Source: a virus. Taken from it: a stretch of DNA of 64,000 nt. The notes below the pieces were generated by a model. The model had not been told where the DNA came from. It worked only from the letters and a program-made list of their open reading frames with translations, and searched no databases. The first letter of the stretch is position 1, and every line of letters starts with the position of its first letter. This document shows, piece by piece, positions 947 to 31,306 of this stretch. Location: positions 31,021 through 95,020 of IMG/VR virus record IMGVR_UViG_3300035703_000042; one strand, written 5' to 3'. The translations under genes and the position numbers were made by a program.

Positions 947-1849
947 ATGGCCGAACGAATACTACTCGATCGACTCGAGTTCTATATTACCAACGTCTGT
1001 AACCTTACCTGTAACGGTTGTAATCGTTACAACAATTACCATTTCAAGGGGTGGACGGCCTGGGACGAATGGGCCGAGGATCTTGAGCGTTGGTCAAAGT
1101 ACATCGACATCCGACATCCGGTGATCCTGGGCGGCGAACCCTTGATGAATCGTGATATCGTGAAATGGGTCAAAGGCTTGCGTCGACTATGGCCCGATCA
1201 TTCAGGAGTGCAGATCCAAAGCAATGGTACCAGGATCGATCGTGTGCGTGGTTTGTACGATGTGCTGGATCCCAAAGAAGGCAACTGGATCGGTATCAGC
1301 ATACACAACCCTGATGACAAAGAAGAGATTTTTTCGCGCATACGCAACTTCCTCACACATCCCATACGCGAGACTGCAGATAAAAATCATCCCATTGGCA
1401 GCGATTTCCAGTTCTACGATGCCAATAACATGTATGTGCATGCTTGGATGAGTAACAAGTTTGTACAGAGCAATATCATCGAGCGTGATGATGGTACGTT
1501 TACAGTATACAATCACGACAACCCCGAACGCGCACATGAGATCTGTACTTTCCGCAGATTCAAGAACTATCACTGGATCAACGGACGCATTTACAAGTGC
1601 GGACCTGCAGCTCTCATGCCCGAATTTGATCGCCAGCATCATTTTGACATATCCGAAGAGGATCGTGCTATCATGCACGGATATCGAGGACTGAGTGTGG
1701 ACGAGTTTGACGAGCGAGGGCACGACTTCCTTGCCCACATCGATGACATGATTCCGCAATGCAAATTTTGCCCCCAGGACTACGATTACAAACCCATTAC
1801 ATTTTCAGACCGCAAAAAGAGTTGGCGGATCAGCACAGAAATATTATAG
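947..1849 (+). CDS. Radical SAM protein
   Basis: CNLTCNGC motif, GGEPL, SNG, C-terminal Cys cluster. Confidence 0.9.
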   Translation: MAERILLDRLEFYITNVCNLTCNGCNRYNNYHFKGWTAWDEWAEDLERWSKYIDIRHPVILGGEPLMNRDIVKWVKGLRRLWPDHSGVQIQSNGTRIDRVRGLYDVLDPKEGNWIGISIHNPDDKEEIFSRIRNFLTHPIRETADKNHPIGSDFQFYDANNMYVHAWMSNKFVQSNIIERDDGTFTVYNHDNPERAHEICTFRRFKNYHWINGRIYKCGPAALMPEFDRQHHFDISEEDRAIMHGYRGLSVDEFDERGHDFLAHIDDMIPQCKFCPQDYDYKPITFSDRKKSWRISTEIL

Positions 1850-1888: not shown

Positions 1889-2491
1889 ATGAAAAACAAG
1901 TATGGAATCAAAAAACAGTGCCTACATTGCGGAGAAGAATTTATAACGAAACTTAGGCTAGTTGACTATTGTTCTCAGCCCTGTAAGAACCCTAACAACA
2001 GACCAGGTCATATTCCCTGGAACAAAGGTAAGACATTAACTCAAGAACAAAAAGCAAAACAAAATACAACAGGGTTAACAAAAGGTCGGGGATGGAACAA
2101 AGGACTCCCTAATGAACTTGCTCGAAAAAGATTTTTAGAGAATAATCCAAATAAAGACGGACGAGTTAACAATCTAAGACCTAAAAATTATATAGATGAT
2201 GAGTTTTCTGCTTATAAGAGAGAATGTCGTAAAGCCACTTATAGAAGTGTTTATCAGATGAAGAAGGAAGGACTGGTGCCTGAGAATACTGGTAAAAGAA
2301 AAAACCAGTACCAGTTAGATCACATAATTCCGTTTAGACAAGGTTATGAACTTGGGATAGATCCCCGACTCATTGGGAGCAGACAAAATCTGCGTTACAT
2401 CTTAGGCGAAGAAAATAGATCGAAGTGGGATCGTTTTCAGCCCGACGATGTTTTAAAATCAGTTATAGGAGACAATCATGGCTTACAGTAA
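1889..2491 (+). mobile_element. Free-standing HNH homing endonuclease
   Basis: N-terminal CxxC...CSxxC, repeated PWNKG/GWNKG DNA-binding motifs, C-terminal LDHIIP...NL...N; AT-richer than flanks; overlaps the iscU start. Confidence 0.8.
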
Positions 2492-2874
2492 GGCCGTTAT
2501 TGATCATTATGAGAACCCGCGTAATGTGGGTTCGTTTGACAAAGGAGATACGCACGTTGGGACCGGTATGGTTGGCGCCCCAGCGTGCGGATGACGGAGA
2601 CGTCATGAAACTACAGATCAAGGTCAATGAAGATGGCATCATCGAAGACGCGAGGTTTAAAACTTACGGCTGCGGATCAGCCATTGCCTCCAGCAGTCTT
2701 GTCACCGAGTGGGTCAAAGGCAAGACACTCGACGAGGCAGCAACTATCAAGAACACAGCGATCGCCCAAGAGCTCGCTCTTCCGCCTGTTAAAATCCATT
2801 GCTCAATACTGGCTGAAGATGCCATCAAAGCAGCCATAGAAGACTACAGGAACAAACATGGCCACGCCAATTGA
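2478..2874 (+). CDS. iscU: Fe-S scaffold IscU, split by a 7-nt insert at 2592-2598 (needs a bypass/frameshift, otherwise a pseudogene)
   Basis: SD AGGAGA then MAYSKAVIDHYENPRNVG...GAPACG followed by TGA; the +1 frame continues GDVMKLQIKV...FKTYGCGSAIASSS...LPPVKIHCSILAEDA. Confidence 0.93.
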
Positions 2875-3073
2875 AACAGTGATATTGTGGGCATTGATCA
2901 TCAGCGGTGAACCGCGTGTGCAAGAAGTCTATCGCACCGAAGAGCCGTGTGTGCGTGCTGCGAGATCGCATCGTGCTCAAGGAACTTTCGCTTACTGCAT
3001 GCCCACTAATCAGTTCACGGTTGAAACTAGCACGCATCAACTTCGCAGCCTGGGAGTATTGTTGAATGATTGA
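2858..3073 (+). CDS. Hypothetical protein
   Basis: 71-aa ORF between iscU and iscA with overlapping ends. Confidence 0.5.
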   Translation: MATPIETVILWALIISGEPRVQEVYRTEEPCVRAARSHRAQGTFAYCMPTNQFTVETSTHQLRSLGVLLND

Positions 3074-3395
3074 GATCACCGACACAGCCGCAGAGCGAGT
3101 ACAGCAGGCCATCCAACGACGTGGTCGAGGCGTAGGTATCAAGATTGGCGTAAGAACCACCGGGTGTTCGGGACTGGCCTATACCTTGGAATTTGTTGAT
3201 ACGGCACCAGACACTCAACAAGGCATAGAACACTACGACATCAAAGGTGTTGGCGTTTTTGTCAACACCGAGCACTGTGTGTATTTGCAAGGCATGACCA
3301 TCGACTATCAGCGCCGGGGTCTCAACGAAGGCTTCGAATTCATTAACCCCAACGAAAAAGACCGCTGCGGTTGCGGCGAAAGTTTCCGAGTTTGA
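3066..3395 (+). CDS. iscA: A-type Fe-S carrier IscA/HesB
   Basis: TTGCSGLAY and C-terminal CGCGESF motifs. Confidence 0.92.
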   Translation: MIEITDTAAERVQQAIQRRGRGVGIKIGVRTTGCSGLAYTLEFVDTAPDTQQGIEHYDIKGVGVFVNTEHCVYLQGMTIDYQRRGLNEGFEFINPNEKDRCGCGESFRV

Positions 3396-30985: not shown

Positions 30986-31306
30986 ATGCACCATCTTCAA
31001 AAATTTCATGACATGATTGACAGTGTATTCCGACCAACCCTAGAATGGATCCGCAATGACTACCGCGTTTACCCTTTTCGTTTCTGTGTCGAAGTGGTGG
31101 CTTGGGCTCTCAGCATTGGTTGTAGCCTCGTCATGGCTATTACAGTACCTGAGCCCCCTTTACTCGCTCTATATCCTGCTTGGATACTCGGTTGCGGCCT
31201 TTATGCTTGGGCTGCTTGGGACCGCGGCAGTTTTGGCATGCTTGCCAATTATCTGCTGCTGGTCGCTATTGACACCACAGGACTGATTAGGTTGTTGATT
31301 TCTTAG
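30986..31306 (+). CDS. Small multi-pass membrane protein
   Basis: Three hydrophobic segments. Confidence 0.6.
   Translation: MHHLQKFHDMIDSVFRPTLEWIRNDYRVYPFRFCVEVVAWALSIGCSLVMAITVPEPPLLALYPAWILGCGLYAWAAWDRGSFGMLANYLLLVAIDTTGLIRLLIS

Follow-up and report, generated by a model that had tools for sequence, protein, structure and literature searches.

How is a complete IscU protein obtained from a gene that is broken by a stop codon and a change of reading frame? This question is raised by the iscU gene in a 64,000-nucleotide (nt) stretch of viral DNA (positions 31,021 to 95,020 of the IMG/VR virus record IMGVR_UViG_3300035703_000042), which is called the window below and is always meant at its full length. 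No single uninterrupted frame encodes IscU there: a stop stands at 2592-2594 and the remainder of the gene lies in the +1 frame. A preliminary description, made from the letters of the window alone, proposed that ribosomes hop over the interruption from one Gly codon to another and thereby produce canonical IscU. Comparative evidence strongly supported such a programmed short stop-hop, but three details of the proposal, namely a tetraloop hairpin as the signal, matched GGA codons, and competition with release factor 2 (RF2), were not borne out. Judged from these sequence comparisons, phage iscU is probably decoded by a programmed short translational bypass (stop-hop) from GGN to GGN.

The two parts of iscU abut when seven nucleotides are skipped

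The features of the locus are listed in Table 1. When the sequence was read again, every letter of iscU and of its insert cited in the preliminary description was found to be correct. The first part of the gene encodes 38 amino acids (aa). From 2599 the sequence reads GAC GTC ATG AAA in the +1 frame and remains open to the stop codon at 2872-2874, which gives a second part of 91 aa and 129 aa in all. Both parts were recognized by the Pfam profile NifU_N (40.3 bits for the N part and 126.1 bits for the C part; cut-off 22), the N part covering profile positions 1-35 and the C part positions 36-125, so that the parts are contiguous between 35 and 36. The C part aligned to residues 39-125 of Escherichia coli IscU (2l4x), which places the junction between residues 38 and 39. 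Since the two parts abut on the NifU_N profile as well as on E. coli IscU, skipping exactly 7 nt restores colinearity without the gain or loss of a residue. The three cluster Cys, Asp39, and LPPVKIHC are colinear with E. coli IscU only if these 7 nt are skipped. The earlier claim that deletion of exactly 2592-2598 restores a 129-aa IscU is thus confirmed by both the contiguous profile match and the alignment.

The assembly was checked by comparing Logan contigs with positions 2200-3000 of the window. Contig X2 (830 nt, depth 18), which comes from an independent study, showed one substitution and was gap-free across 2592-2598; the same region was gap-free in X3 (213 nt), a contig from a third study, and in X20, a metatranscriptome contig from an 88%-identical relative. 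A perfectly matching run (X1) was left out of the independent support, because it may be the source run. Since X2 and X3, which come from two other studies, carry the same 7 nt, the insert is not an assembly artefact, and the assembly error that the preliminary description had considered is excluded.

Table 1. Features of the iscU locus and its neighbours, in window coordinates
Feature	Position	Strand	Remarks
Radical S-adenosylmethionine (radical-SAM, rSAM) gene	947-1849		Upstream of the HNH-like open reading frame (ORF)
HNH endonuclease-like gene, 200 aa	1889-2491	+	Overlaps the iscU start by 14 nt
Shine-Dalgarno (SD) sequence AGGAGA for the iscU start	2467-2472	+	Within the 3' end of the HNH-like gene; read from the sequence
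iscU codons 1-38, ending in Cys37 (TGC 2586-2588) and Gly38	2478-2591	+	ATG 2478; Pfam NifU_N positions 1-35, E 4e-10
Internal SD-like AGGAG	2543-2547	+	3 nt 5' of the 11-bp hairpin
5' arm of the 11-bp hairpin	2551-2561	+	Codon 25 positions 2-3, His26, Val27, Gly28; covariation, RNAalifold
3' arm of the 11-bp hairpin	2579-2589	+	Ala34 position 3, Pro35, Ala36, Cys37, first G of the take-off codon
Take-off codon GGA (Gly38)	2589-2591	+	GGN in all relatives
Earlier-noted hairpin ATGACG-GAGA-CGTCAT	2591-2606	+	Folds here; not a family feature
In-frame stop TGA directly 3' to the take-off codon	2592-2594	+	TGA, TAG or TAA in relatives
Spacer C, 1 nt	2595-2595	+	0-4 nt in relatives
Landing codon GGA	2596-2598	+	GGN in relatives
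iscU codons 39-129 and stop codon (2872-2874)	2599-2874	+	Asp39, Cys63, LPPVKIHC with His105 and Cys106; Pfam NifU_N positions 36-125, E 1e-36
IscA-like gene	3066-3395		Downstream of iscU

The insert recurs at one site with variable letters and length

Of the 80 viral loci with the greatest similarity to the C part, seven had an insert at the same place with other letters, one of them in-frame. A pattern scan of viral contigs detected 72 with inserts directly after the Gly38 codon, which were 7 nt (29 loci), 8 nt (19), 9 nt (22), or 10 nt (2) long. The codon opening the insert was TGA, TAG, or TAA in these 72 loci and never TGG, though the pattern allowed TGG. The first pattern had fixed the landing codon; a repeat scan, in which the letters between the stop and ATGAA were left free, was completed and yielded 73 iscU loci. 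All 73 showed the order stop, 0-4 nt, GGN GAY GTN ATG, and one of them had a 6-nt insert (GGT-TAG-GGC in L409). A scan of metagenomes found at least 26 cases, all of the same order and with new spacers. An interruption of this kind at this very site in about 100 further contigs, about 75 of them viral, is far beyond chance.

Carriers were also searched for outside these contigs. The scan of 185,579 representative prokaryote species genomes (one for each species) returned 32 pattern matches, none in iscU (e.g. Lon protease), and no cellular carrier of the insert was found among these genomes. Megablast of the region against isolated phages gave no match, and searches of isolated phages by protein found only uninterrupted iscU, e.g. 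in Phage C48C1, and no cultured carrier.

One relative (L127, minus strand) combines a 10-nt gap, TAG-AACC-GGC, with a second interruption of iscU. Its N part lies at 3619-3506 and its C-terminal part at 2448-2209, and an apparent intein of about 330 aa sits at the second cluster ligand (KTYG/CFVGNT...VGSHN/CGSAIASS). Since gap and apparent intein occur in the same gene, the invariant codons of iscU attract more than one kind of mobile element.

Codons on both sides of the gap are conserved as protein

The inserts of 6-10 nt occupied all three frames. Therefore, no single frameshift or readthrough event accounts for all of them, whereas a frame-independent event does. After the gap, Gly-Asp-Val was invariant as protein with variable codons (GGA/GGT/GGC, GAT/GAC, and GTA/GTC/GTT/GTG). 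These purely synonymous changes indicate that the codons are translated, though no start codon precedes them, and the synonymous variation of the Asp39 and Val40 codons makes a restart at Met41 unlikely.

In 46 distinct insert genes, the N part had a median ratio of nonsynonymous to synonymous substitution rates (dN/dS) of 0.11 and the C part one of 0.07. Synonymous sites were close to saturation, and the insert genes differed at a proportion of synonymous differences (pS) of 0.6-0.8. These values indicate that both halves of iscU are under purifying selection, and the impression recorded in the preliminary description that neither half is decayed was correct.

The first two bases of the take-off and landing codons always matched in the insert loci. 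Where an overlapping GGG occurs one base before the landing codon (TGA-G-GGC, TAG-GGC, TGA-CG-GGC), the take-off and landing codons were both GGC or GGU, a match that would be expected from anticodon re-pairing. As stop codons, TAG and TAA were as frequent as TGA, so that RF2 competition at a weak UGA-C stop, which had been suggested as a means to tune the output of IscU, is not a general property of these genes. An alternative genetic code was ruled out, because all three stop codons occur at the site and the other long ORFs of the window are open under table 11.

A co-varying hairpin abuts the take-off codon

Analysis of third-position entropy revealed that synonymous variation is suppressed at codons 15-37 in the insert-bearing genes only. 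The suppression is ascribed to an 11-bp helix formed within this region. In the window, the helix between 2551-2561 and 2579-2589 had a folding energy of -24 kcal/mol (z -2.25). Its pairs were formed to the extent of 10-11 of 11 in all 32 distinct insert genes, as against 3-9 of 11 in 133 normal iscU genes. When the arms were evaluated in alignment A3, 97.4% of the helix cells were paired, slid registers gave 31-49%, and none of 500 shuffles reached the observed values. Four pairs at synonymous third positions co-varied, with counts of CG 16, AU 14, and UA 2 for the first; UA 16, CG 7, UG 6, GC 2, and GU 1 for the second; GC 24, GU 6, and AU 2 for the third; and GC 18, AU 3, and CG 2 for the fourth. 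RNAalifold independently recovered the 11-bp stem. An invariant U-G pair indicates that the structure is formed on the sense RNA.

The helix also explains a peculiarity of the protein. Residue 26 was His or Gln in 35 of 35 insert genes and in only 1 of 121 normal genes, because the CAN codon pairs with UG of the Cys37 codon. A role of His26 or Gln26 in the nascent peptide was considered and dropped, since base-pairing explains the residue. An SD-like AGGAG(G) was present just 5' of the helix in 41 of 43 distinct insert genes and in 17 of 18 metagenome variants. At the corresponding site of 133 normal genes, 114 had no motif and four had a full AAGGAG. The two residues specific to insert genes, 23 (Glu/Gly) and 26 (His/Gln), are both accounted for by the AGGAG motif and the helix, so that a signal from the nascent peptide in the exit tunnel, though conceivable, is not needed. 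The motif would come to lie 8-12 nt from the landing codon only when the hairpin is closed.

The preliminary description had assigned the signal to another hairpin, which spans the insert itself (2591-2606). This hairpin does form in the fold of the window (centroid -7.8 kcal/mol), but the 61-nt region around it was no more stable than shuffled sequences (z +0.36). Of 43 distinct variants, only the 6 that have GAC GTC/T contain a hairpin of this type, and it is not conserved in the family. Recurrence was therefore seen for the insert (about 100 contigs), low dN/dS for both halves of the gene, and covariation for the 11-bp helix, but not for the tetraloop hairpin.

An HNH-like gene is linked to the insert

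The 200-aa ORF directly upstream of iscU encodes a protein that we regard, with moderate confidence, as HNH-like. A CxxC...CxxxC (Cys4) finger lies near its N-terminus and a DH...N...N motif near its C-terminus, and WNKG repeats are also present. The Cys residues, DH (144-145), N167, and N176 were invariant in an alignment of 25 homologues (A1). Its neighbours in the language-model Atlas were HNH/NUMOD3 clusters. A Pfam search with this ORF alone returned nothing, PDB sequence searches with the ORF and with a profile of alignment A1 returned nothing, and in PHROGs the ORF matched only a family of unknown function. Unannotated counterparts of its C-terminal, HNH-like half (residues 109-183) exist in several T4-like phages of Acinetobacter, including AbTZA1, Acj61, and AB-Navy1 (36-39% identity), and weaker ones in phages of Aeromonas, Vibrio, and Providencia.

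The HNH-like gene adjoined iscU in 53 of 79 insert loci, which correspond to 47 of 73 distinct contigs and in some cases hold only a remnant of it, and in none of 167 normal loci. Its homologues sit directly 5' of iscU and overlap the iscU start. The gene shows presence/absence polymorphism between related genomes: in L012, the rSAM gene (77% identical to that of the window) borders immediately on an iscU that is uninterrupted and 92% identical in its C part, and both the HNH gene and the insert are missing. In the insert loci that have no HNH-like ORF, iscU follows a homologue of the window ORF 458-799. The existence of these loci indicates that the endonuclease gene can be absent while the insert persists.

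A model of short bypassing and the findings that oppose it

We propose the following model. The peptidyl-tRNA-Gly on the take-off GGA would meet TGA in the A site, and decoding would slow. At take-off the 3' arm of the 11-bp hairpin would be inside the ribosome and the hairpin open; as the hairpin re-forms behind the ribosome, it would pull the mRNA forward, and the peptidyl-tRNA-Gly would re-pair with the next GGN, 6-10 nt downstream. The closed hairpin would at the same time bring AGGAG to its effective distance from the landing codon, where pairing with the anti-SD sequence may hold this codon in the P site. Decoding would then restart at Asp39 to give the canonical 129-aa IscU. As for the origin of the insert, the adjacent HNH endonuclease may target the invariant Cys-Gly-Asp codons of insert-less iscU, and the insert would protect the carrier genome. 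Such self-protection is suggested by the strict association of the HNH gene with the insert and by analogy with MobA and the gap of gene 60.

In its fullest form, towards which we lean with some reserve, the model holds that the SD-like motif, the 11-bp hairpin, the Gly take-off codon, the stop, 0-4 nt, and the Gly landing codon make up a minimal self-contained module. This module, carried by large uncultured phages, would support a hop of 6-10 nt, with at least two re-formed pairs, that is efficient enough for the production of an Fe-S scaffold protein, and would have arisen as immunity against a homing endonuclease. It would then represent the first natural stop-hop family and the second independent case of an endonuclease associated with bypassing.

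Several findings weigh against this interpretation. Across the insert genes there is no conserved take-off stem-loop that holds the take-off codon in its 5' side, and the linear sequence has no SD-like element 5-7 nt before the landing codon. The third base of the take-off and landing codons differs in many loci, so that matched GGA codons are not required as the preliminary description had supposed. In 27 of 72 loci the hop would even cross between the tRNA-Gly boxes for GGA/G and GGU/C (GGA to GGU/C, or GGU to GGA), in which case only two G-C pairs can re-form. As to the endonuclease, the Pfam HNH match was below threshold in 15 of 25 members (best E 0.0014), and the best structural matches, the HNH nickases 4h9d (Z 4.5) and 5h0o (Z 3.8), had a Foldseek E of about 1. 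The link between the HNH gene and the insert could moreover be a single historical event. In the nucleotide tree of iscU the insert genes were scattered (19 changes, at least 8 of them forced by starred branches), but a single clade of all inserts was not rejected by the approximately unbiased (AU) test (p = 0.083). Repeated invasion by the insert is therefore not claimed, and the approximately 100 cases are taken as evidence of long maintenance rather than of independent gains or repeated invention.

The only exception to the conserved order also belongs here. In L180 (150-290, minus strand) the site reads GGT-TGT-T-GGA, in which TGT replaces the stop. This locus was found by looser pattern scans of viral contigs and was the sole addition among the matches listed, which were mostly unrelated DNA. 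Its frame 0 continues for 12 codons to TAA, and the sequence resembles the 9-nt TAG-TTA-GGA class minus two A's. L180 may represent a copy in decay, an error of sequencing, or hopping at a sense codon.

Alternative explanations

A split gene would yield a 38-aa N piece that ends at the stop and a second piece that starts at Met41 (ATG 2605) from a local GGAG, the two assembling without Asp39 and Val40. ATG 2605 indeed lies 5 nt after GGAG, several variants have an SD-like AGGTGA(T) or GAGGG before the Met41 ATG, and functional split genes are known next to Mob endonucleases (bioRxiv 10.1101/2022.08.31.505936). In this case, GAY GTN would be an untranslated spacer, yet Asp-Val was present in about 100 of 100 cases with synonymous changes only. 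Asp39 stands beside the cluster ligand Cys37 and was invariant in 133 of 133 normal genes, and many variants (e.g. TAG-ATA-GGC-GAT-GTA) have no credible SD sequence. Furthermore, the insert-specific hairpin and AGGAG would be left without a role; their use as a split ribosome-binding site for Met41 was ruled out by the effective spacing, since AGGAG is 17-21 nt from ATG 2605 in the closed hairpin. We therefore consider a split gene unlikely.

Local recoding without a hop, by a +1 or +2 skip or by stop readthrough, would leave two or three extra residues between Gly38 and Asp39 (here Cys-Gly-Asp-Gly-Asp). UGA-C is a shifty or leaky context, as in prfB, some shift restores the frame for each insert length, and the +1 product of the window retains the string Cys-Gly-Asp. 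Nevertheless, three mechanisms would be needed at one site: inserts of 7 and 10 nt would call for a +1 shift, those of 8 nt for a +2 or -1 shift, and those of 6 and 9 nt for readthrough. A slippery codon that could re-pair is lacking (GGA to GAU), the letters of the spacer vary freely and its length changes, and the extra residues would fall in the cluster-binding loop. The conserved GGN at the end of the gap would be required for re-pairing but not for a shift. Local recoding is accordingly judged improbable.

It is very improbable that the insert is a disabling scar, such as a footprint of homing or repair, in an inactivated gene of a phage that does without its own IscU. In formal terms the frame is interrupted, an IscU of the host is presumably available, and L180, which lost the stop, may be decaying; a decaying gene would not be expected to keep the low dN/dS described above in both halves while most synonymous sites differ, nor to show no second lesion in 46 distinct genes. 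The stop was kept while switching between TGA, TAG, and TAA, and a co-varying RNA hairpin evolved around the site. Removal of the 6-10 nt from the mRNA by a nuclease together with an RNA ligase of the phage is likewise hardly credible: the direct repeat GGN...GGN would permit seamless rejoining and a hairpin abuts the site, but only one hairpin flanks it, the metatranscriptome contig X20 keeps the insert (although this may be DNA carry-over), and we know of no excision of a few bases from RNA by such splicing in bacteria or phages.

Genomic neighbourhood

The source is a 95-kb IMG/VR virus record with a completeness of about 27% by CheckV. This fits a piece of a very large phage, and relatives are found on contigs of 329-524 kb. 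The gene order in the window is rSAM, HNH-like ORF, iscU, and IscA-like gene, and no tRNA gene was found within the window. On the 5' side of iscU the order varies among relatives, with the rSAM gene adjoining iscU with or without the HNH gene, or with the homologue of ORF 458-799 directly before iscU. This variation indicates that the neighbourhood was rearranged more than once.

On the 3' side, a 71-aa ORF (2858-3073) overlaps the end of iscU and reaches iscA. Counterparts of 37-45% identity occupy the same position in L003, L005, and L009, and no match was found in Pfam or PHROG. The ORF may encode a small conserved partner of the phage Isc genes. The distance from iscU to the IscA-like gene, about 200 nt in the window, is 0.8-2 kb in L069, L118, L046, L100, and others, in which further genes are likely inserted between the two.

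Comparison with known recoding systems

The proposed bypassing of a short gap in iscU resembles the +1 frameshift of prfB, the gene for RF2, in that UGA-C is the stop that occupies the A site and an SD-like element lies upstream. The prfB site has a slippery CUU-U codon and an SD sequence 3 nt upstream, and it directs a +1 shift only. In contrast, iscU has no slippery codon (GGA cannot re-pair at +1), its SD-like motif is 41 nt upstream, and its inserts of 6, 8, and 9 nt are not solvable by a +1 shift.

Programmed bypassing is in practice known from the gene 60 family alone, apart from the byp elements of yeast mitochondria. Like the byp elements of Magnusiomyces capitatus, the iscU inserts would be short non-coding sequences, tolerated in an essential type of gene through bypassing by ribosomes, and they begin with a slow-to-decode codon. 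The byp elements are 27-55 nt long, are present in 81 copies in many genes, have spread like GC-cluster elements, and are tied to that mitochondrial translation system (bioRxiv 10.1101/2022.08.31.505936), whereas the iscU insert occupies one site of one gene in phages of bacteria.

The arrangement in iscU is also similar to the synthetic stop-hops made in E. coli. In the account of Weiss et al. 1987 given in PMC5009743, matched codons lie on either side of a stop, and 9 nt code for one amino acid. GGT-TAG-GGC of L409 is of precisely this type, and in the window a spacer of 1 nt is added to it. The synthetic stop-hops were engineered and of low level, whereas the arrangement in iscU is natural, conserved under selection, and accompanied by dedicated RNA signals. 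According to the 2016 review, natural in-frame stop-hops were unknown and shorter natural counterparts of gene 60 had long been expected but not found (PMC5009743). Full-text literature searches found no natural short stop-hop and no connection of iscU to either bypassing or homing endonucleases. The iscU inserts would thus be the first natural family of short stop-hops. The family offers about 20 natural variants of a 6-10-nt gap, in every frame and with a co-varying upstream hairpin, and the idea that refolding of the mRNA behind the ribosome drives forward movement becomes directly testable in a very small construct. For annotation, it is a warning that genes of this kind end up as pseudogenes or as two separate fragments.

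The comparison with T4 gene 60 and mobA (features from bioRxiv 10.1101/2022.08.31.505936 and PMC2988022) reveals both likeness and difference. In both systems, a Gly take-off codon is followed by an immediate stop and then by a Gly landing codon, after which translation resumes (in iscU, would resume) at the next codon. Both gaps lie in highly conserved codons about 40 codons into the gene (46 in gene 60, 38 in iscU), directly downstream of a free-standing HNH gene, with an RNA stem-loop 5' of the take-off site, and each system retains the gap in some lineages that no longer have the endonuclease. On the other hand, the gap in iscU is 6-10 nt as compared with 50 nt in T4 and 20 nt in the shortest known relative. 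The iscU family lacks a conserved take-off stem-loop, and its gap is too short to hold an SD sequence; what predominates among the conserved elements is instead the 5' hairpin, which directly adjoins the take-off codon. The third codon base is always within the wobble range of one tRNA in the gene 60 family (bioRxiv 10.1101/2022.08.31.505936), whereas it is often outside this range in iscU. Furthermore, the host gene is iscU, not a topoisomerase gene, it is not split by the endonuclease, and the adjacent endonuclease has no detectable similarity to a named Mob protein.

In T4 gene 60, the functions suggested for the 5' stem-loop and for the SD sequence of the gap match those that we propose for iscU (bioRxiv 10.1101/2022.08.31.505936; 10.1101/2024.12.09.627546). 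MobA is a free-standing HNH nickase encoded beside gene 60, and the gap blocks self-nicking (PMC2988022; bioRxiv 10.1101/2022.08.31.505936). The combination of a homing endonuclease with a bypassed insert in the most conserved codons of its target suggests a recurrent evolutionary solution rather than an oddity of T4.

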